A DNA stretch of 64,000 nucleotides, from positions 221,938 through 285,937 of the forward strand of contig CAZIAP010000001.1 in NCBI GenBank assembly GCA_964537315.1, given 5' to 3'. Made by a program: the position numbers and the translations under genes. Source of the DNA: an uncultured Gammaproteobacteria bacterium (lineage in GTDB: Bacteria; Patescibacteriota; Microgenomatia; Levybacterales; GWA1-39-11). The notes under the pieces are model-generated. The model made no database searches. It was not told the DNA's origin and saw only the letters and a program-made list of their open reading frames with translations. Position 1 is the first letter of the stretch, and each line of letters starts with the position of its first letter. Shown in pieces: positions 8,217 to 64,000 of the stretch.

Positions 8217-10001
8217 ATGGCACAGAAGTTCTCAAACTCAGACATCGCAAAATTGCTCAGAAATGTAGCAGTTGCTTATACATTGACTGATGAGAAGAAA
8301 CACCGATTTCAAATAATTGCATATCAAAACGCAAGTGAGGCCATTGAGCATGCGACAATTGAACTACAAGATCTTCATCGTGAACAGAAGCTTGAAAGTT
8401 TTCCCGGCATTGGACCAGGTATCAAAAAATACTTGGATGAACTATTTAAAAATGGTAAAGTTCAACACTTTGATAACCTTCTAAGCAGCATACCTCAGTC
8501 TATCTTCCCATTACTTGATATTCCTTCATTTGGTCCCAAAAAAGCAGCAAAAATTGTTATGAGTTTCAGGCTCTCTGATCCATCTACAGTGCTTAAAGAT
8601 GTTGAAAAACTTGCCCAAGACGGCAGAATTTCAGAACTACCGGGATTCGGAGAAAAAAGTGAAAAAGATATATTAAGAGCACTAAATGAATATAAGAAAG
8701 GCACTTCTAAGTCCAGCAGAATGGTTCTTCCATATGCCTACTCTCTGTCACAAACGGTGGTTAAATATATGAAACAGTGTGAGGATGTTATTGAAATTCA
8801 CCCTCTAGGAAGCCTACGACGTATGGTTTCAACAATTGGAGACGTAGATCTTGCGGTCACATCACGAAATTCAGACGCAGTACTCGATTATTTTACTAAA
8901 TACCCTGGAGCAGAACGGGTGATTGAAAGAGGACCAACTACAGCTGCGATACTAGTTGCAGGAGGAAAACATGTAGACTTACTTGTTCTTCCACCTGAAA
9001 GTTTTGGATCTCTCCTTCAGCATTTTACTGGCAGCAAATTTCATAATGTAGCTCTTCGAGAATATGCCTTAAAAAAAGGCTACTCACTTTCAGAGCGAGG
9101 TATTAAACTTTTAAAAAAAGATGGTGAAATGATAAAGTTCAAAACAGAAGAATCATTTTATTCTTTTTTAGGGCTGGACTGGATACCACCTGAGATCAGA
9201 GAAAATCAGGGAGAGATTGAACACGCTCTTAAACGAACTCTGCCAAAACTTGTAGAAATCTCAGATATAAAAGGAGACCTACACATGCATAGCAATTACC
9301 CTATAGAACCAAGTCACGATACTGGGGCGGACACGATGGATGCACACCTCAAACGAGCAAAAAAACTTGGGTATGAATATGTTGGGTTTTCGGAACACAA
9401 TCCAAGCATAAACAATCATTCTGAAAACGAAATATTGTCATTATTAAAGGGGAGAAAAGAATATATCGAACAAAAAATATCGAGTAATTATAATATACGA
9501 GTATTTAATCTACTCGAACTTGATATATTGGCTGATGGGAAAAGAGCAATTAGCGATAAAGCACTTGAGCAATTAGATGCTGTTATTGTCTCTATACATA
9601 GTGCATTTGGAATGGAAAGAAAAAAAATGACTCAGAGAATTATAGATGGATTATCACATCCAAAGGTCAAAGTGTTTGCGCATCCAACTGGAAGATTAAT
9701 TAATCAAAGACCTGGCTATGATGTTGACTGGGAAAAACTTTTCGAATTCATGAGAGAAAACAATAAAGCGCTTGAAATTAACTCTTGGCCTACCCGACTT
9801 GACCTTCCTGATATGTTAGTCAAGCAAGCAAAAGAGTCAGGGATCAAATTTGTTATTAATACTGATAGTCACGCAGTCGATCATATGGAAAACATGTTTT
9901 ATGGTGTCTCAGTTGCTCGAAGAGGTTGGTGCGAAAAAGGTGATATTTTGAATACCTACCCATTGGAAAGATTCGAAAAATGGATAATGAATAACAGGTG
10001 A
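8217..10001 (+). CDS. polX: DNA polymerase X family protein (Pol beta-like nucleotidyltransferase plus C-terminal PHP phosphoesterase domain)
   Basis: HhH/GIG motif FPGIGPGIKKYLDELF. Pol-beta-like core GDVDLAVTSRN. C-terminal PHP domain DLHMHSNYP...GFSEHNP...HAVDHMENM. Stops at TGA (10002-10004). Confidence 0.85.
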   Translation: MAQKFSNSDIAKLLRNVAVAYTLTDEKKHRFQIIAYQNASEAIEHATIELQDLHREQKLESFPGIGPGIKKYLDELFKNGKVQHFDNLLSSIPQSIFPLLDIPSFGPKKAAKIVMSFRLSDPSTVLKDVEKLAQDGRISELPGFGEKSEKDILRALNEYKKGTSKSSRMVLPYAYSLSQTVVKYMKQCEDVIEIHPLGSLRRMVSTIGDVDLAVTSRNSDAVLDYFTKYPGAERVIERGPTTAAILVAGGKHVDLLVLPPESFGSLLQHFTGSKFHNVALREYALKKGYSLSERGIKLLKKDGEMIKFKTEESFYSFLGLDWIPPEIRENQGEIEHALKRTLPKLVEISDIKGDLHMHSNYPIEPSHDTGADTMDAHLKRAKKLGYEYVGFSEHNPSINNHSENEILSLLKGRKEYIEQKISSNYNIRVFNLLELDILADGKRAISDKALEQLDAVIVSIHSAFGMERKKMTQRIIDGLSHPKVKVFAHPTGRLINQRPGYDVDWEKLFEFMRENNKALEINSWPTRLDLPDMLVKQAKESGIKFVINTDSHAVDHMENMFYGVSVARRGWCEKGDILNTYPLERFEKWIMNNR

Positions 10002-10051
10002 CCCGTGTTGCTCTTGACAATCTGAAACAATAAGTAGAAAATCAAATAAAC

Positions 10052-10618
10052 ATGAACTTCTTGAGTCCAACATTTATCGTCGCAGGTGTTGTAATAGCAA
10101 TACTGGTTTTTCTATGGATTAACTATAATTCACTCGTTACACTCCGTGAACGAGTCCGTGAAGCTTTATCAAGTATAGATATACAATTAAAACGTAGGAC
10201 TGACCTTATTCCAAACCTTGTTGAGACAGTTAAAGGATATGCAAAGCATGAAAAAGGTGTGTTTGAGGAAGTAACCAAAGCACGATCAAGTCTCATGAAG
10301 GCTGAGTCTCCACACCAGAAAGCAGAAGCAAATAATATGCTTACTGACGCTTTAAAGTCTTTATTTGCTGTAGCTGAAGCTTATCCCGACCTGAAAGCAA
10401 GTGAAAACTTTAAACACCTTCAGGAAGAGTTATCTGACACAGAAGACAAAATTTCTTATTCTCGTCAGTTTTATAACTCAAACGTTCTTTCATACAATAC
10501 CCGTCTAAAAACTGTTCCGACTGTATTCATTGCGAACATATTCGGATTTAAGGAAGAACAGTTCTTCGAAACAGACGAAGGTGATCATGAACCGGTCAAA
10601 GTAGATTTTTCTTCATAA
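10052..10618 (+). CDS. lemA: LemA family membrane protein
   Basis: N-terminal TM helix followed by [39 protein letters not shown]...[13 protein letters not shown], which is typical of LemA. Confidence 0.8.
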
Positions 10619-10686
10619 TTTTCAATTAATCTTCATAGCTATCTTCTATTCGTAGCCTTATTCGGTTAGAATATATATATCCATAT

Positions 10687-12084
10687 ATGAAATTTAGTAC
10701 ATTAACCAGTATTGCGGCAGGAAAAGTAACAAATGCCATAATAAAAGAGTTCGGACTAGGGTCCGGAAGCACCTGGCCCGGCCACATAGCACTAAAACTT
10801 AATAAAACATTTCTTAAAGATCTTACTAATAAAAAAAACTTAAAGATAGTCCTCATTGTAGGAACAAACGGAAAAACTACAACGGCAAAACTGCTCAGAC
10901 ATATTTTAGAAAAAAACGGACTGAAAGTTTTTCAAAATGACGAGGGCGCAAATCTCATAAACGGTATAGCGACTAGCTTACTTCGTAACTCTACTATCCT
11001 GAACAATATCCCATATGATGCGGCAATTTTTGAGGTTGATGAGAATAATCTACCGAAAGTATTAGCTCAGATAAACCCTTCTGCTATTGTTTTTCTCAAC
11101 CTATTCCGTGATCAGCTCGATCGGTATGGAGAAGTACACACCATAGCAAGTAGATGGCAAGAAGCACTTAAAAAAGTTTCTTCTAGGACAATGGTACTTC
11201 TGAACGCAGATGACCCAGAAATTCGATATTTGCTCAAAAGTATAAATGGAAAATCACGCTACTTCTCTATTCCTAATAAGTATCTTTCAGCGAAAAAAAC
11301 TTCATATGATACTGATTCAACTCACTGTCCGTCGTGTGGCACGAAATTAAAATTTTCAAAAATTGCATATTCTCACATAGGTAAGTACACTTGTCCAAAA
11401 TGTAAATTTACTAATGAAAATTTGCTTGACGGCGGACGAGGCATTAAAGGGGAAGTTGATGAGTCATTTCCAATACCGCTTGCAGGCACATATAACGTTT
11501 ATAACACACACGCAGCAGTTAAGACTGCGATAGAAGTATTTAATATACCATCGGAGAAAATAAGAGAAGCTTTAAAAGACTTTAAACCTGCATTTGGTAG
11601 ACAAGAGGTACTTAAGTACAAAGCACGTAGGTTTATCATGTTACTATCAAAAAACCCTGCAGGTTTTAATCAATCAATTTCAGCCATCAAAGAAGTTTAC
11701 AAGTCTAATGATTCTAGAGCAGATCAAGATAAGCGTCGATCTGAAAATGCTGGACCACACCCTAATATTTTAATTGCACTAAACGATAGGATACCTGATG
11801 GACGAGATGTATCTTGGATATGGGATGTAGATTTTGAAGAACTCAATGACAACTCAGCGACAATCATGGTTACCGGGGATAGAGCATATGAGATGGGACT
11901 TCGATTGAAATACTCTACAGAAAGCCAAAAACATAGTTCAGGAGTTAAAATTTTTACAGACAGCAAAAAAGCTATAGACGAACTAGTAAACGCTACACCA
12001 GAGGGAGAGTTAGCATTTATTCTTCCAACTTATTCTGCGATGCTTGAGTTAAGAAAAATCCTAACCGGAAGGGAAATTCTTTAG
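10687..12084 (+). CDS. murT: Lipid II isoglutaminyl synthase, Mur-ligase-like subunit MurT (Mur ligase central domain, Cys4 zinc ribbon, DUF1727)
   Basis: P-loop VGTNGKTTTAKLL. CPSCGTKLKFSKIAYSHIGKYTCPKCKF forms a 4-Cys ribbon. It is immediately followed by, and translationally abutting, a GatD-like gene. Confidence 0.8.
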   Translation: MKFSTLTSIAAGKVTNAIIKEFGLGSGSTWPGHIALKLNKTFLKDLTNKKNLKIVLIVGTNGKTTTAKLLRHILEKNGLKVFQNDEGANLINGIATSLLRNSTILNNIPYDAAIFEVDENNLPKVLAQINPSAIVFLNLFRDQLDRYGEVHTIASRWQEALKKVSSRTMVLLNADDPEIRYLLKSINGKSRYFSIPNKYLSAKKTSYDTDSTHCPSCGTKLKFSKIAYSHIGKYTCPKCKFTNENLLDGGRGIKGEVDESFPIPLAGTYNVYNTHAAVKTAIEVFNIPSEKIREALKDFKPAFGRQEVLKYKARRFIMLLSKNPAGFNQSISAIKEVYKSNDSRADQDKRRSENAGPHPNILIALNDRIPDGRDVSWIWDVDFEELNDNSATIMVTGDRAYEMGLRLKYSTESQKHSSGVKIFTDSKKAIDELVNATPEGELAFILPTYSAMLELRKILTGREIL

Positions 12085-12897
12085 ATGGAAAATAAAAACT
12101 TGAGAGAGGAAAACTTATCATTAACAATTGGCTGGTTATATCCTGATCTGATGAGTACTTATGGTGACAGAGGAAATATTCTGGTACTAAAAAAACGCTG
12201 TGAATGGAGAGGCATAAAAGTGAAAATACTTCATATAACTCCAGAAACCCCTGAGCATGAACTTTCATCCATCAACTTGCTTTTCGGTGGAGGCGCGCAA
12301 GATCGTGAGCAAGAGATAGTAATGCGTGATTTAAAGGGGAGAAAAGGTATTTGTATCAAAGATTTAATCGAACAATATATTCCATCATTGTTTGTGTGTG
12401 GCTCACCACAGTTAATGGGTAAATTTTATGAACCATCATCGGGAAAAAGAATTGAGGGATTAGGAATATTTGATATGGAGACTAGGCATCCTGGACCCAA
12501 CAACGACAGACTAATCGGCAATGTGGTAGCAAGAGTAAATTGGGATAACTTAGCTGTTCACAGTTCACAGTTCAAAGTTCACAGTGACTACATCGTTGGA
12601 TTTGAAAATCATGGAGGAAGAACTCGATTAGGCCAGAATGCAAAACCATTTGCAACAGTTGTAAAAGGTTACGGCAATAATGGCGAGGACAACACAGAGG
12701 GGGTAGTATACAAAAACGCGATCGGATGTTATTTTCATGGTCCCCTACTTCCAAAAAATCCTCATATCGCAGACTTCTTAATTCAGAGGGCGCTGGAAGT
12801 AAAATATGCAAAAAAAATCCAACTTACCCCACTGAATGATCAATTGGAAAAACAAGCTCACTATGCAATTGTAAAAAAGCTTGGTGTTAAGATATAA
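12085..12897 (+). CDS. gatD: Lipid II isoglutaminyl synthase glutaminase subunit GatD (class-I glutamine amidotransferase-like, CobQ/CobB type)
   Basis: LTIGWLYPDLMSTYGDRGNILVL...FVCGSPQLMG (catalytic Cys context). Its start codon directly follows the murT stop. Confidence 0.75.
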   Translation: MENKNLREENLSLTIGWLYPDLMSTYGDRGNILVLKKRCEWRGIKVKILHITPETPEHELSSINLLFGGGAQDREQEIVMRDLKGRKGICIKDLIEQYIPSLFVCGSPQLMGKFYEPSSGKRIEGLGIFDMETRHPGPNNDRLIGNVVARVNWDNLAVHSSQFKVHSDYIVGFENHGGRTRLGQNAKPFATVVKGYGNNGEDNTEGVVYKNAIGCYFHGPLLPKNPHIADFLIQRALEVKYAKKIQLTPLNDQLEKQAHYAIVKKLGVKI

Positions 12898-12921
12898 TGC
12901 GGATATAAAACTTTTAGCCCC

Positions 12922-13209
12922 ATGAAAATAATAGATGTCAATCATATTGCCAAACTAGCCAATTTAACTCTTGAAAAAGATGAAGTAGAAAAATTTCAAA
13001 AGCAACTCTCCGAAGTACTTGACTATATCTCAAGACTTAATGAGTTAAACACTACTGATATTGAACCGACTAGCCAAGTAACAGGACTTGAAAATGTAAC
13101 GCGTGACGATAAAATCAAACCTTCACTTACCCAAGAAGAGGCGCTTTCTAATGCAGCCTCTCAGCATAATGGGCTTTTTAGAGTGAAAGGTGTATTTGAA
13201 AATGAGTAA
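12922..13209 (+). CDS. gatC: Asp/Glu-tRNA(Asn/Gln) amidotransferase subunit C
   Basis: MKIIDVNHIAKLANLTLEKDEVEKFQKQLSEVLDYISRLNELNTTDIEPT is a typical GatC. It lies upstream of gatA and gatB. Confidence 0.8.
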   Translation: MKIIDVNHIAKLANLTLEKDEVEKFQKQLSEVLDYISRLNELNTTDIEPTSQVTGLENVTRDDKIKPSLTQEEALSNAASQHNGLFRVKGVFENE

Positions 13210-13468
13210 GAGAATTGAGAAAAAAGTACTTCCTGAATATTTTGAAAAAATATTGATTGGTGATAAAACATTTGAATTAAGACTTGCAGACTTCGATTGT
13301 AAATCAGGAGACATATTGGTACTTAAAGAGTGGGATCATATTGATAAGAGATTTACAGGAAGAACTTTAGAAAAAAAAGTAACCTACGTGCTTAAAACAA
13401 AAGATATTAAATTTTGGACAGATGAGGAAGTAAAAAAATTTGGCTACCAAATAATTTCATTTAAATAA
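13202..13468 (+). CDS. Small ASCH-like (DUF3850-type) protein inserted between gatC and gatA
   Basis: MSKRIEKKVLPEYFEKILIGDKTFELRLADFDCKSGDILVLKEWDHIDKRFTGRTLEKKVTYV matches the DUF3850/ASCH pattern (PEYFE..G.KTFE.R..D....GD.L.L.E). The track ORF begins at 13190; the ATG at 13202 is preferred and overlaps the gatC stop. Confidence 0.5.
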   Translation: MSKRIEKKVLPEYFEKILIGDKTFELRLADFDCKSGDILVLKEWDHIDKRFTGRTLEKKVTYVLKTKDIKFWTDEEVKKFGYQIISFK

Positions 13469-13470
13469 CT

Positions 13471-14922
13471 ATGGATACAAAACAATTAACAATTTTTGAG
13501 GCAAAGAAAATGCTGGCTGCAAAAGAAATAAGTGCGACGGAACTGACAAAGGCATATTTATCCCAAATTGAGAAATATGATTCAGAGATAAATGCTTTTA
13601 TTACAGTTACCAACGAAGATGCAATCAGGCAGGCAGAATCAGCTGACAAACTGCTGTCTATGCAAGACGAATCTCTCCACAAAGAAAAGCCATTGCTCGG
13701 AATTCCGGTTGCTTTAAAAGATCTTTTTGTCACCCACGGAACACGTACCACAGCCGCATCCAAAGTTCTTGAGCACTACATTCCACAATTTGATGGAACC
13801 GTCGTTAAAAAACTCAAGGATGCAGGAGCTGTAATTGTAGGAAAAACCAATTGCGATGCGTGGGCACACGGTTCGAGCGGTGAGAACTCAGATTTTGGCC
13901 CTACACGTAACCCATACAACAAAGAATATGTACCGGGAGGGTCTTCAAGCGGTTCACCAGCTGCGGTCGCATCCAATATGTCTCTTATGGCTACAGGAAC
14001 TGATACGGGGGGATCAATACGTCTTCCAGCAAGCTTTACAAATACCGTGGGATTAAAGCCAACATATGGACGGGTTAGCAGATATGGAGTTATTGCGATG
14101 GCATCATCACTAGACTCAGTAGGACATTTTACAAAGACGGTTGAAGATAACGCGCTGGTTCTTAATGTAACTGCAGGAAAAGATGAGATGGACGCAACTA
14201 CTCCTCCAAAAGAGGTTACTGATTACACTGAAAATATCACTGATGGAGTAAAAAACCTAAAAATTGGAGTACCAAAAGAGTATTTTATAGAAGGACTTGA
14301 TCCTCGCATCAAAGAAAGGATAGAAGACGTAATAAAGTTTTATGAATCACAAGGAGCAAAAATAGTTGATATTTCACTTCCTCACACAAAATTTGCAATA
14401 GAAGTATATTATGTTGTCCAAACAGCAGAAGTCTCATCTAATCTAGCTCGCTACACAGGTATCAGGTTTGGCACTGACCGATCTAATTTGGGCGATGAAG
14501 CAAAAAGAAGAATAATGCTTGGCACATATGTGCTCTCTTCTGGCTATTATGACGCTTATTATAAAAAAGCTATGCAAGTACGTACACTCTTGAAAAAAGA
14601 CTTTGACGAAGCATTTAGTCAGTCTGTAGATGGAGTAGACGTGTTACTTACACCCGCATCCCCTTCTCTTCCGTTTAAAATTGGAGCAAAAACCGATGAC
14701 CCTCTGCAAATGTATCTATCAGATATATTTACAGTCCATGCAAACCTTGTTGGTGTTCCAGGAATTTCGGTCCCTGCCGGATTTATAGATGGATTACCGG
14801 TTGGGTTCCAGCTACTTGGAAAGCACTTTGATGAAGCTACTCTTTACAAAACAGCTCATACCTATGAACAAGCTAACCCACACTGGAAGGAGGAACCAAA
14901 ATTAATTTCTAATATCAAGTAA
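13471..14922 (+). CDS. gatA: Glutamyl-tRNA(Gln) amidotransferase subunit A (amidase signature family)
   Basis: Amidase signature GGSSSGSPAAVASNMSLMATGTDTGGSIRLPAS with Ser-cisSer-Lys triad context. Operonic with gatC and gatB. Confidence 0.9.
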   Translation: MDTKQLTIFEAKKMLAAKEISATELTKAYLSQIEKYDSEINAFITVTNEDAIRQAESADKLLSMQDESLHKEKPLLGIPVALKDLFVTHGTRTTAASKVLEHYIPQFDGTVVKKLKDAGAVIVGKTNCDAWAHGSSGENSDFGPTRNPYNKEYVPGGSSSGSPAAVASNMSLMATGTDTGGSIRLPASFTNTVGLKPTYGRVSRYGVIAMASSLDSVGHFTKTVEDNALVLNVTAGKDEMDATTPPKEVTDYTENITDGVKNLKIGVPKEYFIEGLDPRIKERIEDVIKFYESQGAKIVDISLPHTKFAIEVYYVVQTAEVSSNLARYTGIRFGTDRSNLGDEAKRRIMLGTYVLSSGYYDAYYKKAMQVRTLLKKDFDEAFSQSVDGVDVLLTPASPSLPFKIGAKTDDPLQMYLSDIFTVHANLVGVPGISVPAGFIDGLPVGFQLLGKHFDEATLYKTAHTYEQANPHWKEEPKLISNIK

Positions 14923-48119: not shown

Positions 48120-49532
48120 CTATTCCTGCGTAGAAAAGAGAGATTCTAAAAATTTAAAGTCGTTTTCATTCAATGATCCAAAATAATATTTCATTTTTGC
48201 TTCGTAGCCTGATTTTCTTATTGCACACCATGATTGCATATAATCCCCTTCATAAACTTCAAATCTAGTTCCGTCTGTTTCTAATACTTTTACTTTTTCT
48301 GCAGGAAAACGATCTGACACATTTTTTTCAATGGTTTTAATCTTTTCTTCATCGTGGTCATTAAGTGAAACTGACCCTTGAATTCTTTTTCCGTCTGGAT
48401 GCCTCGCTCCTAGTTTTGAAAGTTTCCCGTTCACACTCATCCAGTACAAGATTCCGGCAATAGAAAAAGTTGCAGAGTCAGTCATAAAAAAATCTTTTAC
48501 ATAAAAATGCCCTACATTTTCTGCACCGAACTCAATTTTTCCGTCCTGTACCAGCTGGCGCACCAGAGACCTACCTACAGGAATAGGGGTAATGTCAATT
48601 AAACTAGATTTTTTAAGATCTACTGCAGTGTTATATAACGCAGGACCAACCTCGACTGCATATCCTACTGACTTTGAAGAAAACCCAAGCATGACAAGAG
48701 TTTGTATAAGACCGCTGGCAAGTATCGAACCATTCAAGTACTCTCCATTTTCATCAGCAGCAAGTACTCTATCCCCATCACTATCAAAAGCAAAACCACA
48801 GTCTAATCCATCAGCTTTTACTTTTTCAATAACCTGCTGCATATTTTTTAGTTCTGATGGATCAGCTTGGTGAGGAGTATTTGCATCGTATATTTTTCTG
48901 TCATTAATTCTAACAAACTCAACCTGAGGTAATAGCTTTTCTAATACTGAAAGAGATCGTGATCCTGATCCGTCTCCAATGTCCACCGCAATTTTAAAAT
49001 TTTTTATCTCATGCAATGGAATTAAATCTTTAATTTTTTTCGCATAGACATCTTCTATCGGAGATAAAAAGTCAGTACAGTGTGAGAGATCGTCAGAGGG
49101 GTTGGAGTATTCAATAGATTGAGCAAGGTAATAATCTTCAACTACTTTACTTACGATCTCTCCCTGAAGTGATGATCCATGCTTTGTATGAATTAGTAAA
49201 CCTGTCCAATTCCAAGGATTATGAGACGCAGTAAACATAATAGACAAGTCAAAATCAAATTGATACGCTCCTGCTGTTACGTAATCGATAGGTACTTTAT
49301 CCATATAGCTTACTTCTACTTGTTTATCATTTAAAGCGTGAATAAAGTTTAATGCAAGCGACTTGCTCGACTCCCTAGTATCCCAACCAATAAGTACTTT
49401 TTTAACCTCAAACGTACTGCAAAGAGCGTGCGCGAGATAGAATGCGTCAGAGTCTTTTATATCCTGGTTATATACACCACGGAAATCGAATTTTTTTACA
49501 AATGGAGGTGTCTTGTCGGGCATGGCAACCAT
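48120..49532 (-). CDS. Phosphohexomutase (phosphoglucomutase/phosphomannomutase/phosphoglucosamine mutase family)
   Basis: Active-site phosphoserine loop TASHNPWNW; metal-binding FDSDGDR; four-domain alpha-D-phosphohexomutase layout. Confidence 0.85.
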   Translation of the reverse strand: MVAMPDKTPPFVKKFDFRGVYNQDIKDSDAFYLAHALCSTFEVKKVLIGWDTRESSKSLALNFIHALNDKQVEVSYMDKVPIDYVTAGAYQFDFDLSIMFTASHNPWNWTGLLIHTKHGSSLQGEIVSKVVEDYYLAQSIEYSNPSDDLSHCTDFLSPIEDVYAKKIKDLIPLHEIKNFKIAVDIGDGSGSRSLSVLEKLLPQVEFVRINDRKIYDANTPHQADPSELKNMQQVIEKVKADGLDCGFAFDSDGDRVLAADENGEYLNGSILASGLIQTLVMLGFSSKSVGYAVEVGPALYNTAVDLKKSSLIDITPIPVGRSLVRQLVQDGKIEFGAENVGHFYVKDFFMTDSATFSIAGILYWMSVNGKLSKLGARHPDGKRIQGSVSLNDHDEEKIKTIEKNVSDRFPAEKVKVLETDGTRFEVYEGDYMQSWCAIRKSGYEAKMKYYFGSLNENDFKFLESLFSTQE

Positions 49533-49585
49533 TCCATTGTAGCATGAGACGACCGCCTTTTTCTATTAATTATATTTAAGGTTAT

Positions 49586-49640
49586 TTAAGGTTGAACCTT
49601 AATTGCCAGAAATTTAAAGCTAACCAAGGTTCAACCTTTA
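49586..49640. repeat. REP-like palindromic repeats (2 copies) 3' of the RAYT gene: TTAAGGTTGAACCTTAA (49586-49602) and CCAAGGTTCAACCTTTA (49624-49640), plus a half-site at ~49576-49584
   Basis: Core AAGGTT(G/C)AACCTT is a 13-nt imperfect palindrome. The same core recurs twice on the other side of the transposase gene. Confidence 0.55.
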
Positions 49641-49643
49641 TTG

Positions 49644-50312
49644 CTATTCTTTTTCTAAAGTCATTGATCCTAAAATATCAGAAGAATCACCTGCATAGTC
49701 CTCTACAAAGCTTTTATAAGAATTAATTTTATAGTTATCTATAGAGGCATTAAAGTATCGTAAAACTTCATGAGGTTTGATCCAACTTGCATTTCTCATT
49801 CCAAGATAATAAGAGTAGCTTGAATATTTATTAAATTCTAATTTTTCATTTGAAAGATTGATAGGATTTAAATGAATATATCGACTGAGATGCAAAAGGT
49901 AAGAATCTTGATCGATTATGCATGCCTTGTATATGCTTTCAAATAAAGGTCCCCTCCTGTGGTATTTGCTATTAAAATACATTACATAGGCTGTAATTAA
50001 CCTCTTCATAAACTTTGTAATACCAACATTAGTGTGTTGTTTAAGAAGTAAATGAAAATGGTTCGGCATTAGAGAAAATGCCAGCATATCAACTTGTGTA
50101 GACAAATTCATAGAAAGAAATCTCAGTATTCTTTTGTCTTGCTGTAAAAGAATTTGTATATCATCTTTAGGAGATAAATAAATTGATATATAGTATAAGA
50201 AAACTTTACAATCTTGTTCATCTATAAATATATTTCGCTTGTCTATTCCTCGATTGTAAACATGATAATACCCGTTCTCTATATAACTTTTTATGATATT
50301 TCTTGAAGGCAT
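49644..50312 (-). mobile_element. REP-associated tyrosine transposase (RAYT) / IS200-like HuH-Y1 transposase
   Basis: YHVYNRGIDKRNIF; HuH motif MPNHFHLLL; catalytic Tyr context LSRYIHLNPI. 222 aa, flanked on both sides by the palindrome AAGGTT(G/C)AACCTT. Confidence 0.7.
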
Positions 50313-50326
50313 AATTTAATATTCAA

Positions 50327-50380
50327 TCAAGGTTGATCCTTTGTCAAGCACGATAATTGTTCTATCAAGGTTCAACCTTT
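50327..50380. repeat. REP-like palindromic repeats (2 copies) 5' of the RAYT gene: CAAGGTTGATCCTTT (50327-50341, one mismatch) and CAAGGTTCAACCTTTA (50365-50380)
   Basis: Same AAGGTT(G/C)AACCTT core as at 49586-49640. Lies in the divergent intergenic region between the RAYT and the dioxygenase-like gene. Confidence 0.55.
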
Positions 50381-50403
50381 ATAAATGGTGTATACTTAAA
50401 TTT

Positions 50404-51009
50404 ATGAAATCTTTTTCTCTTCCGTTAGCTCTAGTAGTTTTAGCTGTAGTCATAATTGCTACGCTTATTTTTAGAATTAAAAGTACAGGTAATGAGCCAT
50501 TTACTATGAATACATCCAATGTAGCTTCTGAAGACTGTATTCCTACTTTTGCTGATGGTGGTGGACCTTACTATCAAGAAAACTCACCTTTCAGAGAAAA
50601 AATTGTACCAGAAAATAATGAGGGCATAAAATTATTGGTATCAGGTAAAGTCTTGCTAAATGATTGTAAAACTCCAGTATCAAATGCTGTGATTGACATC
50701 TGGCAAGCAAATGAGTCAGGAGACTATCAAGACGAATGGTACAGAGGAAAAATAAATACAGACAATAAAGGTAGCTATTCCTTTGAAACTGTAGTTCCTA
50801 AAGGATATGGTGAAGGCACAGGATATAGGCCGCCACACATTCATTTTAAAATTTTTGTAGACGATCAAGAGATAATAACATCCCAGATGTTTTTTCCTGA
50901 AGTTAAAGGAACTCCTGGATTTGAGGATGCATACATTATGAAAGTAGAAGAAACGGAAAGAAGTGGAGACAGAATTTTAGAAGCAAATCACAATATTATT
51001 CTACCTTAA
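50404..51009 (+). CDS. Secreted intradiol ring-cleavage dioxygenase-like protein (Dioxygenase_C fold)
   Basis: Preferred start is the ATG at 50404 (MKSFSLPLALVVLAVVIIATLIF signal or anchor). The track start at 50341 overlaps the REP. Core VSGKVLLNDCKTPVSNAVIDIWQANESGDYQDEWYRGKINTDNKGSYSFETVVPKGYGEGTGYRPPHIHFKIFV contains the intradiol dioxygenase Y...Y...RPxHxHF iron-ligand motif. Confidence 0.6.
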   Translation: MKSFSLPLALVVLAVVIIATLIFRIKSTGNEPFTMNTSNVASEDCIPTFADGGGPYYQENSPFREKIVPENNEGIKLLVSGKVLLNDCKTPVSNAVIDIWQANESGDYQDEWYRGKINTDNKGSYSFETVVPKGYGEGTGYRPPHIHFKIFVDDQEIITSQMFFPEVKGTPGFEDAYIMKVEETERSGDRILEANHNIILP

Positions 51010-57271: not shown

Positions 57272-58897
57272 TTATGAGTTTTTGTATACGGGGTTATGTA
57301 TTAACAGGTCGAGAACCGACTGAGACTCCTTCCCTTCAAAAATAACTATATCTTTTGTTCCATACTCTTGCTTAATCAGCTCACTCATTTTCTTTGGAGA
57401 AGCAACAGTTACTTTACATTTGTTTCCTGAATCATTGATCCCTTTAATAATCTGTGTATAGAAATTTTTATTCATTAAAAATAAATGGTCACAAACCTTA
57501 CCAATTTGCTGTCCAATTTCATAGTGATTTTGCTTTCCGTTCTTTCCGAGTTCAATCATCGGTTGAAGCACTAAAACTTTTTTTCCTTTTTGGTGTGATA
57601 AATATTCGACTGCTGACAGGACTGATGCCGGATTTGCGTTATATGTATCGTCTATATAAAGTACGTCGTTTTCTCCTATAAAAGGTTCCATTGTTTTATA
57701 TAATGGCTTAATTAATCGAAGTGCTTCTGTGATCTCAGATTTTGTCATTTTTAGCTGTTGACCTACAAATATTCCCGGAAGAATATTTTGTATGTGGTGT
57801 TCTCCTACCAGATCAACACGTAATCTTCGATACTCTTTATTTCCTACCAATGCATCAAATGTCAAAAAAGTAGGATGTACTTTAACATTGTGTGCGACGA
57901 TCTGTGCATTATGTTGAGATTTATTGCCTGTGTAATATAAATATTTTTTTCTTCTCCGCGTGTGTCGGAAAAGTTCAGAACTGTTTTCATTATTTCCGTT
58001 AAACAGGGCTATTCCATCAGAAGGCAATGATTCAATTAGTTCATATTTTGCCCTTTTTGTATTCTCTACACTTCCAAATAATGAAACGTGTTGATCATTT
58101 ACTGCAGTCAGAACTCCAATTTTAGGTCTTACAAACTCACACATTTCAGCAATCTCACCAATTTTATAAGCTCCCATCTCTGCTATAAAAATTTCAGTAC
58201 TTTTGTTTAATTTTGAGATAATGACACGCGCAATTCCGATGGGGGTATTGTGTGTGGAAGGAGTTTTTAAAGTATTAAACTTGGAAGATAAAATTGTATA
58301 CATGTACTCTTTGGTCGAGCCTTTTCCATAACTTCCTGTAATGCCGATTACAAGAAGTTTTTTATATCTTCGGATTTTCTTAATTGCTTTGTTGATTTGA
58401 GTGTCTTTATAAAAAATTGAAGGAAAGGAAAAAAGACCCATCAAAACTGCTATTATTCCTACCACTAATTTATCAATAAATACTAACCAGAAAAATCTAT
58501 CTAGTAATGGGATAAAAAGAAAAAGGAAAACTAACGCTACAGTACCTCCAGCAATTAATATTAATTTGGGAGTAAAAACAGGCAGCTTAACTTTTTTTTG
58601 AATTATATCTAACAAAAATCGGACTGCTTCATACGCGTAAATACCACACACTGCCCATGGCACTAAAGGATAATACTCAGAATAAAAAATGGTGAAAAAG
58701 TAAAAAAAAATTACTGCAGTTTTAGCGACTGGTTCAAAACCCAGTACCAATGATCGTCCTTGTTTTGTTTCCCGAACATGAACAATTAGCCGGTCAAGAC
58801 GGTATTCTTTGATCTGCCATAAATATAACCAATAGATAATAGTACGTACTAGATGAATTATGAACAAACAGTACGTTACGGTAAATAATATGTCCAT
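57272..58897 (-). CDS. murF: UDP-MurNAc-tripeptide--D-Ala-D-Ala ligase (MurF-like Mur ligase) with an unusual N-terminal ~170-aa polytopic membrane segment in place of the canonical N-terminal domain
   Basis: Central domain GITGSYGKGSTKEYM (P-loop variant) and C-terminal DDTYNANPASVLSAVEYL, the MurF hallmark DDSYNANP. The N-terminal 170 aa contain about 5 hydrophobic helices (LFTVTYCLFIIHLVRTIIYWLYLW..., AVIFFYFFTIFY..., LILIAGGTVALVFLFLFIPLL..., LVVGIIAVLMGLFSFPSIF). Confidence 0.75.
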   Translation of the reverse strand: MDILFTVTYCLFIIHLVRTIIYWLYLWQIKEYRLDRLIVHVRETKQGRSLVLGFEPVAKTAVIFFYFFTIFYSEYYPLVPWAVCGIYAYEAVRFLLDIIQKKVKLPVFTPKLILIAGGTVALVFLFLFIPLLDRFFWLVFIDKLVVGIIAVLMGLFSFPSIFYKDTQINKAIKKIRRYKKLLVIGITGSYGKGSTKEYMYTILSSKFNTLKTPSTHNTPIGIARVIISKLNKSTEIFIAEMGAYKIGEIAEMCEFVRPKIGVLTAVNDQHVSLFGSVENTKRAKYELIESLPSDGIALFNGNNENSSELFRHTRRRKKYLYYTGNKSQHNAQIVAHNVKVHPTFLTFDALVGNKEYRRLRVDLVGEHHIQNILPGIFVGQQLKMTKSEITEALRLIKPLYKTMEPFIGENDVLYIDDTYNANPASVLSAVEYLSHQKGKKVLVLQPMIELGKNGKQNHYEIGQQIGKVCDHLFLMNKNFYTQIIKGINDSGNKCKVTVASPKKMSELIKQEYGTKDIVIFEGKESQSVLDLLIHNPVYKNS

Positions 58898-58994
58898 ATA
58901 TGATATAGCGCTATTATAAAAGACATCCGACTTAAAAGCCAGCTTCTTTTATTATATAGTGAGCTACATGGATAGAGAAATAATTAGAGGGTAT

Positions 58995-59453
58995 TTATAT
59001 TAATGTATCGATCATCAATCGGTATACATTTGTATTTCGTTTTTTAAATCCTAAACGCTGGTATAGATGATTTGCTGCTTCTCTCTCAGGTCGAGAAGTC
59101 AAACCAATATAGGTAAGTCCTAGTTCTCTGGCTTTACCGATTCCTGCATACATTAACTTTTCCCCAAGACCGTTACCTCTGTACACTTCGTCTACAACAA
59201 CATCTTCTATATATCCGCGAGTTGCGCTAGGAGTACTGTACGTTACCAAAGTAAGTGTTCCGACAATTGCGTCGTTTTCTTCAGCTTTTGCAACAAATAA
59301 ATACGTGTTAGGGACATCAATTATTTTTTGCAGATCATTTAGAGTAAGTGAACGAATATCGGGATTTAGCTGCCTCATCAAATTGTTTAGAGCTGTTAGG
59401 GTTTCCTCAGATACCCTCGTAACTTGGTCAATGTAAAATTTTTGATCATTCAT
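58995..59453 (-). CDS. GNAT family N-acetyltransferase
   Basis: Acetyl-CoA binding motif VVVDEVYRGNGLGEKLMYAGIGKARELG (Q/R-x-x-G-x-G/A). 152 aa. Confidence 0.8.
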   Translation of the reverse strand: MNDQKFYIDQVTRVSEETLTALNNLMRQLNPDIRSLTLNDLQKIIDVPNTYLFVAKAEENDAIVGTLTLVTYSTPSATRGYIEDVVVDEVYRGNGLGEKLMYAGIGKARELGLTYIGLTSRPEREAANHLYQRLGFKKRNTNVYRLMIDTLI

Positions 59454-59454
59454 A

Positions 59455-60198
59455 TTATGCTACTATTAGCTTCTCTGCTTCTTTTAACTCTTCGGGCGTA
59501 TTAATTCCCCTCCAGTTTAGTCCTTTTACAGTATGTGTAGTGATTTTCTTCTTCTCTTGTACTGCTTTTTCGATTAATGCAGTTATATAATACTCTCCTG
59601 TTACCGGGCTTTTCTGCAATGATTCAAGTTCTTCTTTTAAGAAAGAATAATCAAACATATAACATGCAGGATTAATTTCTTGTATCATTCTCTGTTCTTC
59701 AGTAGCGTCCTTTTCTTCGATTATTCCTATCACTTCATTATTTTGGTTTCGAAGAATTCTTCCAAGTCCGGTCGGATTTTCCATTATCAAAGTCAGAAAT
59801 GAAACCGCAGCTTGTTCATCTTTGTGTTTTTTATATAGCTCACTCAAAATTTCAGGAGTAAAAACATACGAATCATCACCGTTTAAAACTAAAACTGTCT
59901 GTGCGTCTTGAATTTTTTCAAGAGCAACTTTCACAGCGTGACCCGTTCCCAGCTGCTCTGTCTGCTCAGCAATAACTACATCACCATCCAAACACTTAAG
60001 TATAGATTCCTTGGCAAACCCAACAACTACTGCAATATTATGAATCCCCGCTTTTCTAAGATTCGATACTGTATGTGAAATAATTGGTTTTCCTGCAAGT
60101 GGAAGCGCTACCTTATTAATGTCTTTAGAGTTCATGCGGGTACCTTTTCCCGCTGCCATAACAATTGCCCACACTGATTCAAGAGATTGATCTGTCAT
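59455..60198 (-). CDS. Sugar-1-phosphate nucleotidyltransferase (GlmU N-terminal-domain-like uridylyltransferase), lacking the LbH acetyltransferase domain
   Basis: AIVMAAGKGTRMNSKDINKVALPLAGKPII matches the GlmU/RmlA G-x-G-T-R-M nucleotide-binding loop. 247 aa. 1-nt gap to the GNAT gene and 4-nt overlap with murA. Confidence 0.75.
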   Translation of the reverse strand: MTDQSLESVWAIVMAAGKGTRMNSKDINKVALPLAGKPIISHTVSNLRKAGIHNIAVVVGFAKESILKCLDGDVVIAEQTEQLGTGHAVKVALEKIQDAQTVLVLNGDDSYVFTPEILSELYKKHKDEQAAVSFLTLIMENPTGLGRILRNQNNEVIGIIEEKDATEEQRMIQEINPACYMFDYSFLKEELESLQKSPVTGEYYITALIEKAVQEKKKITTHTVKGLNWRGINTPEELKEAEKLIVA

Positions 60199-61523
60199 AC
60201 TTTTTCGTCTAATACTTCAATCTTTGCGCCTAATGCCTGAAGTCTTTCGTGAAAGCTCTCGTAACCTCTTTCTACTTGCTCTATGCCAAACACAACACTT
60301 TCTCCGTTTGCAAGAAGAGAGGCAATAACCAGAGTAGCACCTGCTCGAAGATCATATACAGTTAACACGCCTTCGTGGAGTTTGGTTTTTCCTCGTATCT
60401 TAAGTCCCTGTTCATAGACTTTTTCAGAGTCATAATTGAAATTGTATGTTTTTTCTGGATTTTGAACTTCCGGAGAAAACATTTCGAGTTTGGCTCCCAT
60501 TTTTGCAAGCTCTGTAACATACGCAAATCTATTTTCATAAATTGTCTCGTGAATGATTGACTCTCCATCTGCCTGTGTCATCAAAATTGACCATGGACCT
60601 TGCCAGTCAGTCATAAATCCTGGATGCGGTTCCGTGATAACATCTACTGGTTTTATCCCATTGGGCATATAAAACCTAACCGCTCCATTATTCTCGTCCC
60701 ATTCGCCTCCTGCTTTTTTGAATACATCTAGAAATGTTTGCATGTCGGAAAGCTCAGCATTTTTCATCAGCACTTTCCCGCCTGTTACAGCTGAGATCAC
60801 AGCAAATGTTACTGATTCATTTCTGTCAGGCATAATAGTATGTGTAGCTCCATGAAGTGTTTCAACACCATTTATTTCGATCGTACGTGGCGCAGTTCTA
60901 GTTACGTCCGCCCCCATATTATTGAGCAATAAAATTAAATCGTCAATCTCTGGTTCTTGAGCTGCATTATGTAGAACAGTTTTTCCTTTTGCCAGCACGG
61001 CTGCCAAGATGAGTGTTTCTGTACCGGTGTGTGTATTTTTTTCAAATGTATACTCTGTCCCTACTAATCCATCAGTACTCGCATGAAAGTATCCATCTGC
61101 ACTGGTATACCCGATAGTTGCCCCCATTCGTTCCAGACCCTCAATATGTCTATCAATTGGACGTGCACCTATACGACACCCGCCTGGGTTTGGAATCTGC
61201 GCTTCTTTTGTTCTCGCCAAAAGAGGGGCTAGAAACATGGAAGAAGTTTTAACTTTTGCGCCGATATCAAGAGGTATTTTATTTTTAAGAACCTGTTTCA
61301 CCCTTACTCTAACTGTGTGATCCTGCAATTCCACTTCTCCCCCAATCGCTTTAATAAGATCAAGCATTATCAGAAAGTCACTTATTAGCGGAACGTTCTG
61401 CAAAATCACCTCTTCACTCGTTAGACAAGAAGCGATCAAAGCTTTTGTGACGACATTTTTTGATCCAGAGATAACTACTTCCCCTTGTAATGGCAGCCCT
61501 CCTGTAATTTTATATCTTTTCAT
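60195..61523 (-). CDS. murA: UDP-N-acetylglucosamine 1-carboxyvinyltransferase
   Basis: MKRYKITGGLPLQGEVVISGSKNVVTKALIAS and catalytic-Cys loop PNPGGCRIGARPIDRH. Confidence 0.9.
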   Translation of the reverse strand: MKRYKITGGLPLQGEVVISGSKNVVTKALIASCLTSEEVILQNVPLISDFLIMLDLIKAIGGEVELQDHTVRVRVKQVLKNKIPLDIGAKVKTSSMFLAPLLARTKEAQIPNPGGCRIGARPIDRHIEGLERMGATIGYTSADGYFHASTDGLVGTEYTFEKNTHTGTETLILAAVLAKGKTVLHNAAQEPEIDDLILLLNNMGADVTRTAPRTIEINGVETLHGATHTIMPDRNESVTFAVISAVTGGKVLMKNAELSDMQTFLDVFKKAGGEWDENNGAVRFYMPNGIKPVDVITEPHPGFMTDWQGPWSILMTQADGESIIHETIYENRFAYVTELAKMGAKLEMFSPEVQNPEKTYNFNYDSEKVYEQGLKIRGKTKLHEGVLTVYDLRAGATLVIASLLANGESVVFGIEQVERGYESFHERLQALGAKIEVLDEKV

Positions 61524-61541
61524 AAATCTCCATACTCTATA

Positions 61542-62993
61542 CTATTTTTCTACCAGCTTATTACTAATTTTATAAACATCTCCTGCTCCCATGGTTACAA
61601 TAACATACTCAGCAGAATTATAGTTTTGAGTACAGTATTCTACCATATTATCCACAGACTCAATAAATTGAGCGTCTGTACTGCTAACTATTTGATCATA
61701 TAATTTTCTTTGCTCATTTTCATCTACCTTTTCTTCTCTAGCTGATGGAAAAATGGGAAGTAATAATAACTTATCTGTATCTTCATAAGCACTACAGAAT
61801 TGATGAATAAGTTTTTCCGTGCGAGAAAAGGTGTGTGGTTGAAATATAGTAATTATTTTTTTATCGGGATATGTTGACCTTAGTGCAGTCAATGTAGCCT
61901 TAATTTCAGCCGGATGATGAGCATAGTCATCAATGACTATAGCACCCCCGATTGTTGTACCTATGAGCTCTAATCTCCTTTTGGTACCTGTAAACTTTTT
62001 AAGTCCTTGCTCTATATCGTCAAACTGAATTCCGAGAGAGTGCAGTAATGCAACCGCGGATAAAGAGTTTATAGCATTATGCATTCCGATCACTGGAACA
62101 GATATTGTGCCCAATAAGCTTCCATCTCGCAAAACCTCGTATTTTACGCCAGCAAGTGTATTACTGATATCTACTGCCTGGTATGTGTTATTGCTATCTG
62201 TCCCGAACGTTACCACACTTACACCACTCTGAATAAAATTCACTACTCTTTTATATTCCGGATTATCTCCTGAAATTGTCAGCACCCCTCCGCTCTGAAT
62301 ATTGCTTACAAATTTTTCGAAAGCAACATATATGCTCTCCAGATCATCAAACACATCAGGATGATCAAAGTCTATGTTAGTAATAACTGCACCGAACGGA
62401 TACTGATAATGAAATTTAGGTACGCGATCATATTTTAAATCAGAAAAATATTCATCGGATTCTGCAACGAAATATTCTCCGGTTCCATAATAACCTGCAT
62501 CACCAAGCGAGGCAACTCCCCCTGTACCGATTAAATAAGATGGGTCTTTACCTGCATATTTTAAGATAGTAGCAATCATTGCGGATGTTGTTGTTTTTCC
62601 ATGAGAACCTGCAACTGAAATCCCTTTTATATCTTGACGATTAAGCAACTCTCCTGACTGAAATTTGCCTAACGCCTGACCAAACGTGAGAGTGTTTATT
62701 CCCAACTCTCTTGCTCGCAGCACTTGAGGATTCTCCTGCCCTCCGTGAGACGCAGAGTAAATAACAATAGCCTCATCCGTAGAGCTATCTAAAAACTTAT
62801 TGATGCTTTCCAATTCAAAACCTATATCAATTCCGATACCGTTTCTGCTTAACATTTCACTGGTAATAAAATCCTCTCCAACATCGCTTCCATGTACGTC
62901 CAAACCTGCTTGTTTAGCAATTACGGCTAGTGCAGCCATCCCAACCCCTTTTATTCCAACAAAATATACTTTTTTATATGATTTGTTCCCCAT
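61542..62993 (-). CDS. murC: UDP-N-acetylmuramate--L-alanine ligase
   Basis: VYFVGIKGVGMAALAVI N-terminal Rossmann. VAGSHGKTTTSAMIA P-loop. Mur ligase C-terminal domain. Confidence 0.9.
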   Translation of the reverse strand: MGNKSYKKVYFVGIKGVGMAALAVIAKQAGLDVHGSDVGEDFITSEMLSRNGIGIDIGFELESINKFLDSSTDEAIVIYSASHGGQENPQVLRARELGINTLTFGQALGKFQSGELLNRQDIKGISVAGSHGKTTTSAMIATILKYAGKDPSYLIGTGGVASLGDAGYYGTGEYFVAESDEYFSDLKYDRVPKFHYQYPFGAVITNIDFDHPDVFDDLESIYVAFEKFVSNIQSGGVLTISGDNPEYKRVVNFIQSGVSVVTFGTDSNNTYQAVDISNTLAGVKYEVLRDGSLLGTISVPVIGMHNAINSLSAVALLHSLGIQFDDIEQGLKKFTGTKRRLELIGTTIGGAIVIDDYAHHPAEIKATLTALRSTYPDKKIITIFQPHTFSRTEKLIHQFCSAYEDTDKLLLLPIFPSAREEKVDENEQRKLYDQIVSSTDAQFIESVDNMVEYCTQNYNSAEYVIVTMGAGDVYKISNKLVEK

Positions 62994-62997
62994 ATAG

Positions 62998-63699
62998 TTA
63001 TAGTTCCTTCATCCCTATCACTGTCATAAACTCACCAAATGTATCAGAGCTATCTCCGCGATAAGAAAAATATGAATCAAGGTTACATTTAGTACACTTA
63101 CCTGACATCTTTATGTTGTCGACATGAATTCCTTCTTTTTCCGCAACATTTTTGGCAACTTTTGGTAGGTCTAAAAATATCTTATCACCATGATACCTAA
63201 AAATATCTTCTGAATTTAGCAAATTACTAAAGCTCTCCGCCCGCTTTTCATCAATATCATAACAACAAGAACCGATACATGGTCCGATTGAAAGTTGGAT
63301 TGATTTATTTGATGCACCAAGCTCTCTAGCGGCAATAATTAGATTTGAAACAACACCTGCAAGCAAACCTTTATACCCAGCATGAGCGATTCCGACTACA
63401 CCAGCATGTAGATCAACTATGCTTACAGGAACACAGTCAGCGGTAACCACTCCGAGAAAAACATGGGGACGATTTGTGACCAACCCATCCGCGTTTTCAA
63501 CTATCTGTGGGGTATCTTCATCAACACTTACAACTGTATCTCCGTGTACTTGTTTCATAAAATGTGTAGAATTGTAAGGAATTTCCAACTTTTCTAAGAA
63601 TTGCTGTACATTGCCTCGTTGTAAAATTCGATTGGACATCATACTTCCATCTGACCTGTGAGAAACTGCTGAGACAACATGTAGATTATTACTTTTCAT
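62998..63699 (-). CDS. pgeF: YfiH/PgeF (DUF152) family purine-nucleoside phosphorylase / peptidoglycan editing factor
   Basis: HGDTVV; VVTADCVPVSIVD; IAHAGYKGL; GPCIGSCCYDID are conserved His/Cys/His site motifs of the family. Confidence 0.8.
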   Translation of the reverse strand: MKSNNLHVVSAVSHRSDGSMMSNRILQRGNVQQFLEKLEIPYNSTHFMKQVHGDTVVSVDEDTPQIVENADGLVTNRPHVFLGVVTADCVPVSIVDLHAGVVGIAHAGYKGLLAGVVSNLIIAARELGASNKSIQLSIGPCIGSCCYDIDEKRAESFSNLLNSEDIFRYHGDKIFLDLPKVAKNVAEKEGIHVDNIKMSGKCTKCNLDSYFSYRGDSSDTFGEFMTVIGMKEL

Positions 63700-64000
63700 A
63701 TTTTTTCAATATACTATTTATCACTTCATAATCACTCCAAGGAATTTCTCCATTTCCCAAGTTCATAGATTGCTCATGTCCTTTTCCAGTGACAACAACA
63801 ATATCACCCTTTTCCGCTACTGACAAGGCAAGCTTAATTGCCTCGCGTCTATCCGGAATTTTATATACATACTTATTATCTTTAGAGTTCTTAGATTGAA
63901 CCTGCTTTCCTTCTGCTTGTCGAGTATCTGAATCTTTGACTGTGAAATTATTAGATATACCTGTTGCAATCTGGTCAATAATATTTTCTACTTTCTCGCT
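63689..64000 (-). CDS. murE: Partial (3' end only) UDP-MurNAc-L-Ala-D-Glu--diamino-acid ligase MurE-like C-terminus
   Basis: My translation of the minus strand gives ...DRREAIKLALSVAEKGDIVVVTGKGHEQSMNLGNGEIPWSDYEVINSILKKYEK*, matching the MurE/Mur-ligase C-terminal motif (D-R-x-E-A-I...GD-x-V-x-x-AGKGHE). The stop TAA at 63691-63689 overlaps the pgeF start ATG. The gene continues beyond the window. Confidence 0.65.
   Translation of the reverse strand, partial: SEKVENIIDQIATGISNNFTVKDSDTRQAEGKQVQSKNSKDNKYVYKIPDRREAIKLALSVAEKGDIVVVTGKGHEQSMNLGNGEIPWSDYEVINSILKKYEK

Follow-up and report, generated by a model that had tools for sequence, protein, structure and literature searches.

A Y1/HUH gene and its paired palindromes near ftsZ in a Microgenomates genome: a probable REPtron/TIRtron-type unit

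Genes and palindromes at the locus

We analysed a 64-kb stretch of DNA (the window) from a genome of the Microgenomates, bacteria of the candidate phyla radiation (CPR, Patescibacteria). Between a phosphohexomutase gene (PGM) and ftsZ, the window contains an open reading frame (ORF) for a Y1/HUH protein resembling the tyrosine transposases (RAYTs) that are associated with repetitive extragenic palindromes (REPs). The gene is bracketed by two pairs of 13-nt palindromes, one past the stop codon and the other upstream of the ATG, and a dioxygenase-like gene separates the upstream pair from ftsZ (Table 1). The palindrome pattern AAGGTTSAACCTT, i.e. AAGGTT(G/C)AACCTT, was found at three exact sites in the window, as opposed to 0.00 expected from 100 dinucleotide-preserving shuffles. 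A preliminary description of this DNA had counted four copies and a half-site. Three of the four (P1, P2 and P4) are exact, but P3 differs from the pattern at one position; the half-site results from a tandem duplication next to P1. No further copy of the form AAGG-N5-CCTT was present in the 64-kb window, and a search of the same sequence with up to two mismatches gave two extra matches, which is the chance level (2.13 expected).

The pairs on both gene flanks have the same geometry. The copies are 38 nt apart from start to start and are separated by 25-nt spacers that are unrelated in sequence. The centre base changes from G to C inside each pair, such that the two copies are inverted relative to one another. 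When folded as single-stranded DNA (ssDNA), the downstream pair formed a hairpin of 13–19 bp with a free energy of −12.0 to −13.3 kcal/mol (z −3.3 to −4.1), and values for the upstream pair were −8.0 to −9.6 kcal/mol (z −2.5 to −3.3). Considering all pairs, including those on a second contig (L086, see below), the stems were 13–19 bp with −8 to −15.5 kcal/mol and z between −2.5 and −6.6. Rfam returned no family for positions 49300–50700 at E values up to 1, and a terminator scan found no terminator-like sites.

Table 1. Coordinates of the features at the Y1 locus, numbered from the first nucleotide of the window
Feature	Position	Strand	Basis
Gene for Y1/HUH protein, TnpA-Y1 class 2, RAYT/TIRYT-like, 222 aa	49644..50312	−	Pfam, NCBIfam, conservation, AF2 model
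Tandem duplication, two units of ATTTAAGGTT (49574–49583 and 49584–49593), giving the extra half-site AAGGTT at 49578–49583	49574..49593		sequence
Palindrome P1, AAGGTTGAACCTT, distal downstream copy, within the 17-nt palindrome TTAAGGTTGAACCTTAA at 49586–49602	49588..49600		exact match
Palindrome P2, AAGGTTCAACCTT, proximal copy past the stop codon	49626..49638		exact match
Downstream pair: P1, 25-nt spacer, P2; copies mutually inverted (centre G versus C), REPIN-like	49588..49638		ssDNA fold
Palindrome P3, AAGGTTGATCCTT, an imperfect copy; proximal member of the upstream pair, at 16 nt from the ATG	50329..50341		one-mismatch match
Palindrome P4, AAGGTTCAACCTT, distal member of the upstream pair	50367..50379		exact match; aligns with the distal upstream copy of the orthologue on L082
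Upstream pair: P3, 25-nt spacer, P4; period 38 nt, polarity relative to the gene as in the downstream pair	50329..50379		ssDNA fold
Promoter-like site of the Y1 gene, TTGACA-18 nt-AATATT, with P3 between the hexamers	50318..50347	−	consensus scan, 10/12 matches; consensus match alone

Identity and predicted fold of the Y1 protein

Translation of the ORF confirmed both motifs of the preliminary description, LMPNHFHLLL and SRYIHLNPI. The HUH motif is H85-F-H87 and the catalytic tyrosine is Y145 within RYIHLNP; these three residues are invariant in an alignment of 75 homologues. The Pfam model Y1_Tnp (PF01797), which had been proposed as a check, matched residues 40–147 with 40.7 bits (gathering threshold 23) and also matched all 75 homologues. 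The NCBIfam model for RAYTs (NF047646, REP_Tyr_transpos) gave 34.9 bits with an E value of 1.2e-8, below its equivalog cutoff of 80, and the transpos_IS200 model gave 14.5 bits, with a cutoff of 55. The protein is longer than the TnpA of IS200 (222 versus ~152 aa).

An AlphaFold (AF2) model of the protein was obtained with a pLDDT of 88 and a pTM of 0.87. In a fold search the top PDB match was 4ER8, the E. coli TnpA-REP with a bound REP hairpin (E 1.6e-6, TM 0.64 on the target), followed by ISDra2 and IS608 TnpA; the match probability was 1.00 for each of 4ER8, 2XO6 and 2VJV. A sequence-profile search against PDB chains produced marginal matches alone (ISDra2 TnpA, E ~0.08) and missed 4ER8. 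The earlier assignment of the protein as a RAYT therefore stands in part. Judged by the NCBIfam scores and the predicted fold, the protein is related to RAYTs and closer to them than to IS200 transposases, but with its score below the cutoff and repeats without a GT[AG]G tag it is not a canonical RAYT.

The protein carries the motifs NHFH, LFE, YIHLNP and YSSY; the family consensus has LFQ, and most homologues have FSSY. By motif inspection only, this signature (NHFH, FE or FQ, YIHLNP, SS) resembles that of subclass 2.1 of the TnpA-Y1 proteins. Pfam searches at E values up to 1 revealed no C-terminal helix-turn-helix (HTH; Bac_DnaA_C, HTH_23, HTH_28) in the 75 members, and neither an HTH nor any other domain that binds double-stranded DNA (dsDNA) was detected in them.

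The homologues found by database search number at least 7,963, and each of the top 120 has 50% identity or more across 92% or more of the query. Few homologues have a named source, and these are mostly from Levy-, Davies- and Shapirobacteria. In one homologue, P0105, 35 aa (MNPSPLLAAGYPASGTSSYRTIHPRSRAARYSGSI) are inserted after the FQ motif and before the Tyr helix, at alignment columns ~139–173; this may be another in-frame repeat insertion of the kind described below. Many contigs with a CPR-type Y1 gene (L002, L003, L006, L009, L012, L022 and others) are titled 'uncultured Gammaproteobacteria bacterium', 'Bathyarchaeia archaeon' or 'Nanoarchaeia archaeon'. Such titles look like placeholders or misbinned records and are no guide to the taxonomic range of the family.

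Conservation of the locus in related species

The two closest relatives of the Y1 protein, 72% and 70% identical to it, are encoded on contigs L082 and L083 in the order ftsA-ftsZ-Y1-PGM. Identities between the window and these contigs were 70–72% for Y1, 70% for PGM, 70% for a nearby methyltransferase and 92% for FtsZ. As the gene order is conserved and Y1 has diverged to a similar extent as its neighbours, we conclude that the Y1 gene occupies a fixed chromosomal position and was not inserted recently; the insertion between the phosphohexomutase gene and ftsZ that had been envisaged at first is not upheld. The comparison indicates that the Y1 gene is vertically inherited, and that it is the dioxygenase-like gene that is additional in the window. 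The window together with its extension on L086, ~74 kb in total, contains one Y1 gene.

Both palindrome pairs are kept in L082 and L083 with the same geometry, and most of each spacer has diverged. The reverse complement of P3, AAGGATCAACCTT, is identical in L082 and occupies the same position beside the ATG, after a conserved gcTTGACA. The mismatch in P3 is thus not a sign of decay.

Among the more distant relatives, synteny near ftsA and ftsZ was found at one of 80 loci (L019, positions 10001–13748, from a Woesebacteria metagenome-assembled genome). This 49%-identical homologue lies upstream of ftsA, on the other side of the ftsA-ftsZ pair, and carries an internal exact AAGGTTCAACCTT at 10185.

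Further copies of the palindrome

Contig L086 was retrieved by lookup of the last complete gene of the window. Over 6,323 nt the contig matches window positions 57678–64000 with 100% identity, and it runs 9.7 kb beyond the window. The extension contains four exact copies of the P1 palindrome, at 2767, 2805, 2860 and 2898 of L086, which form two 38-nt pairs. All four are located in the 269 nt that separate a hypothetical gene from the glycyl-tRNA synthetase gene, ~20.5 kb from the Y1 gene, and no Y1 gene was found near this cluster. Alignment of L086 2745–2928 (~6.8–6.9 kb past the right end of the window) revealed two similar units of ~93 nt, which TRF did not report; 22 of 25 spacer positions are identical between them. 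In the L086 pairs both copies have a central G, unlike the G/C pairs flanking the Y1 gene. Since L086 has four exact copies, the palindrome is not confined to the Y1 locus. The dispersal of repeats suggested by the preliminary description is borne out to this extent, but the abundance appears low, eight copies in ~74 kb compared to hundreds in Proteobacteria.

A scan of metagenomes for palindrome pairs yielded 30 contig stretches, of which 26 were without a Y1 homologue in the retrieved DNA, many of the stretches being short. Where the ORF context of low-GC AAGGTT(G/C)AACCTT pairs was checked, 8 of 10 were in short intergenic stretches and differed in their spacers and flanks; two of them are separate sites on one 481-kb contig. 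Matches on L096 and L111 were set aside, as these are 63%-GC contigs in which the pattern falls in repetitive CCTTC-rich coding sequence. A distinct pair, AAGGATCATCCTT and AAGGATGATCCTT separated by 25 nt, is present on contigs L087, L093, L094, L100, L102, L104, L105, L106, L109, L110, L112, L113 and L115. In most of these contigs its spacer is largely conserved (tacactttttcaaggtctcgatgta). Of the two flanks, one is conserved (tatagttcgagatcc) and the second differs between contigs. This pair looks like a mobile-element end or a multi-copy repeat of another organism.

Palindromes in the wider family

For the family survey we used 80 homologous loci retained from genomes representative of their species, a set that does not include the source genome. 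A palindrome was scored as flanking a gene when the same palindrome, with an exact 5-nt arm, was present on both flanks. Shared palindromes were found for 44 of 86 Y1 genes and for none of 748 control ORFs. Other loci have the same design with different palindromes, e.g. CAAGGTCCGACCTTG, AAGGGTCCGACCCTT, GAGGTGGCACCTC and CAAGGCGAGGCCTTG. Among 45 cognate palindromes of relatives, the foot was AAGG in 18, GAGG in 8, AGGG in 4 and CACC in 6. The first three of these feet account for 30 of the 45, with covariation of the inner bases. Where a genome has two or three paralogues, these are 36–67% identical and each has its own palindrome.

At distances of more than 300 bp from any Y1 gene, the palindrome belonging to a locus occurred at 32 per Mb, compared to 2.7 per Mb for palindromes swapped between loci, a difference of ~12-fold. 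These far copies were present at 12 of 41 loci, were mostly intergenic and had extended flanks in common with the gene-adjacent copies. The palindrome also occurred in frame inside the Y1 gene itself, with 22 copies at 16 of 41 loci versus 5 in 1579 swapped control pairs. The in-gene copies occupy two recurrent variable loops, at codons ~45–59 and 136–161, and often have eight or more identical flanking bases. They were found at loci L006, L010, L013, L016, L017, L019, L023, L025, L026, L038, L043, L053, L060, L064, L070 and L075, examples being those at 10491 in L038 and at 10185 and 10481 in L010. The Y1 gene of the window has no internal copy.

The upstream region and neighbouring genes

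P3 lies between the −35-like and −10-like hexamers of a promoter-like site of the Y1 gene (Table 1), the TTGACA of which is kept in L082 and L083. This position suggests that the proximal copy could double as an operator through which the Y1 gene is autoregulated. A TTGAC directly 5′ of the proximal palindrome is kept among close orthologues and is not a family-wide trait, being present in 3 of 45 cases.

On an identical Logan contig the dioxygenase-like gene was called as 201 aa with its ATG at 50404 (span 50404–51009, plus strand). The product matches Pfam Dioxygenase_C and has a hydrophobic N-terminus similar to a signal peptide or membrane anchor. As the called gene begins at 50404, the upstream palindrome pair lies outside its coding sequence, within a 91-nt divergent intergenic region. 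The preliminary description had this pair overlapping the 5′ part of the dioxygenase-like gene, which applies only to a TTG start at 50341; the called ATG leaves the pair intergenic. The gene is absent from the ftsZ-Y1 intergenic stretch of the two closest relatives (L082 2677–2777 and L083 2583–2674). In the window it occupies exactly the interval from the ftsZ stop (51011) to the distal palindrome, indicating that its gain or loss occurred right beside the repeat pair.

A 1898-aa ORF is present at the left end of the window (1051–6747, minus strand). Its exact sequence is without a database record, and the called gene may use another start.

Interpretation of the locus

The interpretation starts from points that are established: the Y1/HUH fold with its catalytic residues, the flanking pairs and their retention in orthologues, the vertical inheritance of the gene, the presence of the palindrome pair at another intergenic site of the same genome and, in the wider family, paralogue-specific palindromes with additional intergenic and in-gene copies. 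In our view the locus is likely to be a REPtron/TIRtron-type unit in Microgenomates, i.e. a single-copy, vertically inherited gene for a domesticated class-2 TnpA-Y1 (RAYT-like) HUH endonuclease, together with its cognate palindromes. The enzyme would recognise the palindrome as an ssDNA hairpin, either as a single copy with its AAGG/CCTT foot or as a 51-nt pair forming a REPIN-like hairpin. It would then cut and rejoin the strand through Y145 with the HUH-bound metal. Over evolutionary time such cutting and rejoining could have copied pairs to new sites at a low rate. Binding of the enzyme at the proximal upstream copy may in addition autoregulate Y1 expression.

Several observations weigh against this interpretation. 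As ssDNA, a lone palindrome forms a weak fold (−2.4 to −4.1 kcal/mol). The palindromes are short and perfect, have no GT[AG]G guide tag such as canonical REPs carry, and look like a dimeric dsDNA operator as much as a hairpin. The Y1 protein falls below the NCBIfam equivalog cutoff for RAYTs, and its motif signature fits subclass 2.1, for which no REPs came to light in the study of Quentin et al. (PMC6006769). Proliferation of the palindrome in the source genome may also be minimal. The eight copies in ~74 kb are confined to two clusters, with none in the remaining ~63 kb of the window, and the L086 cluster consists of tandem ~93-nt units, thus reflecting one dispersal event rather than four.

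The main alternative is that the palindromes are dsDNA operators. A dimeric protein, either the Y1 protein or an unrelated regulator, would bind AAGGTT-N-AACCTT and control the Y1 gene and its neighbours with no mobilisation. The perfect 6-N-6 sites are operator-sized, and P3 in the spacer of the TTGACA-18-AATATT site is kept together with the TTGACA in orthologues; the weak hairpins of single copies and the low copy number would also be expected of operators. However, copies of 25–30 nt whose flanks are identical are found again in distant intergenic DNA and, in frame, within ORFs, which argues for copying and not for convergent operators. Many of the far copies are between convergent genes or at 3′ ends, the palindrome sequence varies with the paralogue, and no dsDNA-binding domain was detected in the family. 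For these reasons we regard an explanation by operators alone as unlikely. Autoregulation at the proximal site is compatible with the cognate-repeat interpretation.

A second alternative is that the unit is an active IS200-like insertion sequence (IS) whose hairpins are its left and right ends (LE and RE), with gene and ends moving together. The size of the unit (~805 bp) is appropriate for such an element, the two pairs share one polarity with respect to the gene, like LE and RE hairpins, and the location of the gene varies among distant genomes, with one of 80 loci near ftsAZ. In contrast, synteny is kept in species whose Y1 proteins are 70–72% identical and whose neighbouring genes have diverged equally, one copy is present in ~74 kb and near-identical paralogues were not encountered. 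Where a genome has several paralogues, their identity is 36–67%, whereas copies of IS200 within a genome are 99% identical (PMC6006769, Table 1). The protein has Y---NP rather than Y---Q, its score with the IS200 model is far from the cutoff, its length is 222 rather than ~152 aa, and palindrome pairs occur without the gene. Taken together, these observations make an active insertion sequence very improbable. A third possibility, which the AT-rich sequence and the location of the sites at gene ends might have suggested, is that the palindromes have nothing to do with the gene and are inverted repeats arisen by chance or ordinary intrinsic terminators. It is excluded by the shuffles (0.00 copies expected) and the control ORFs (44 of 86 versus 0 of 748), and both the terminator scan and Rfam were empty.

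Nearly all work on REP/RAYT systems has concerned large proteobacterial genomes that carry hundreds of repeats. Our full-text literature searches returned no publication in which RAYT, REPIN or REP was connected with CPR names; the sole match was an annotation-level mention of K07491 in an archaeon. The cognate-repeat interpretation extends the logic of a gene with its own palindrome to ultra-small CPR genomes, with conserved synteny, paralogue-specific palindromes, low-level dispersal and in-gene copies. We raise, as a possibility that is less likely than not, that a domesticated Y1 lineage, undescribed as such, is present throughout the Patescibacteria. Its repeats would be short symmetric palindromes with an [A/G]AGG foot, typically paired, without a GTAG tag and occasionally in frame in their own gene. 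Streamlined genomes of ~1 Mb might keep the system as one to three diverged paralogues because the enzyme-repeat pair serves the host, e.g. in promoter/operator control or in ssDNA processing at replication forks. Retention in streamlined genomes strengthens the view of Y1 enzymes as domesticated rather than selfish. The putative 13-nt substrate, unusually simple and without the GTAG tag, is a convenient test case for hairpin recognition by Y1 enzymes. The generic label 'transposase' on thousands of CPR proteins misleads as to their mobile-element load.

Comparison with known systems

TnpA-Y1 proteins of class 2 have a Y---NP signature, a low intragenomic copy number and low identity between copies (Quentin et al. 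2018, PMC6006769). The window protein has YIHLNP and is present in one copy in the window, and the paralogues of the family show the low identities given above. Within class 2, the REPtrons (E. coli YafM/RayT, 4ER8; Pseudomonas RAYTs; Quentin subclasses 2.2 and 2.5, corresponding to Bertels groups 2 and 3) share with the window system a Y1/HUH protein that is longer than IS200 TnpA and has Y---NP. They also share a single-copy, vertically inherited gene bracketed by cognate palindromes, inverted pairs that fold like REPINs, at least one cluster of extra intergenic copies and paralogue-specific repeat families, and the best structural match is 4ER8. The window system differs from REPtrons in having no GT[AG]G tag and instead an AAGG/CCTT foot (GAGG or AGGG in relatives), and a core that is 13 nt alone and symmetric. 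Its family has NHFH and FE/FQ motifs in place of DHLH and WE/WQ. Its RAYT score is 34.9 bits against a cutoff of 80, the observed copy number is low, and the host belongs to the Patescibacteria and not to the Proteobacteria.

The TIRtrons with their TIRYT proteins (Di Nocera 2013, PMC3733652) correspond approximately to subclass 2.1 and to Bertels group 1. Likenesses are NH[YF]H, FQ, Y[IV]HLNP and the 'SS' tail, a similar length (222 aa versus a median of 238), and a gene flanked by inverted repeats that are unrelated to GTAG REPs. Some TIRtron repeats are likewise self-complementary, occur in dimers or clusters and are no more than moderately abundant. Unlike TIRYTs, the window family has no C-terminal HTH in 75 members and its flanks are without the terminal inverted repeat (TIR) motif GGGGWSAS. 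Unlike in subclass 2.1, for which Quentin et al. reported no REP-like structures (PMC6006769), short hairpin-forming palindromes are the rule in the window family.

Subclass 2.4 of Quentin et al., equivalent to Bertels group 4 (Cyanobacteria, Bacteroidetes and others), resembles the window family in having in-frame REPs inside the tnpA-REP gene in peripheral loops. Its REPs are likewise symmetric ('double-foot') and low in copy number, with ~14 occurrences of the flanking 16-mers. However, the 2.4 motifs WQ and YIxNNP are missing here, the 2.4 double foot is GT[AG]G...C[TC]AC, and the window gene has no internal copy. The IS200/IS605 TnpA proteins (IS608, ISDra2; subclass 1.1) resemble the window protein in their HUH/Y1 fold and probably also in the chemistry by which ssDNA is cut and rejoined, and their genes too lie between subterminal hairpins. 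Unlike the window system, IS200 has Y---Q, a protein of ~150 aa and many near-identical, horizontally mobile copies.

The atypical features of the window family have precedents among these systems: TIRtrons and subclasses 2.6 and 3 have repeats other than GTAG, and subclass 2.4 has in-gene copies. From this comparison we conclude that the type of system, REP/RAYT-like, is already known, and that what is new, as far as our full-text searches go, is its presence in the CPR.

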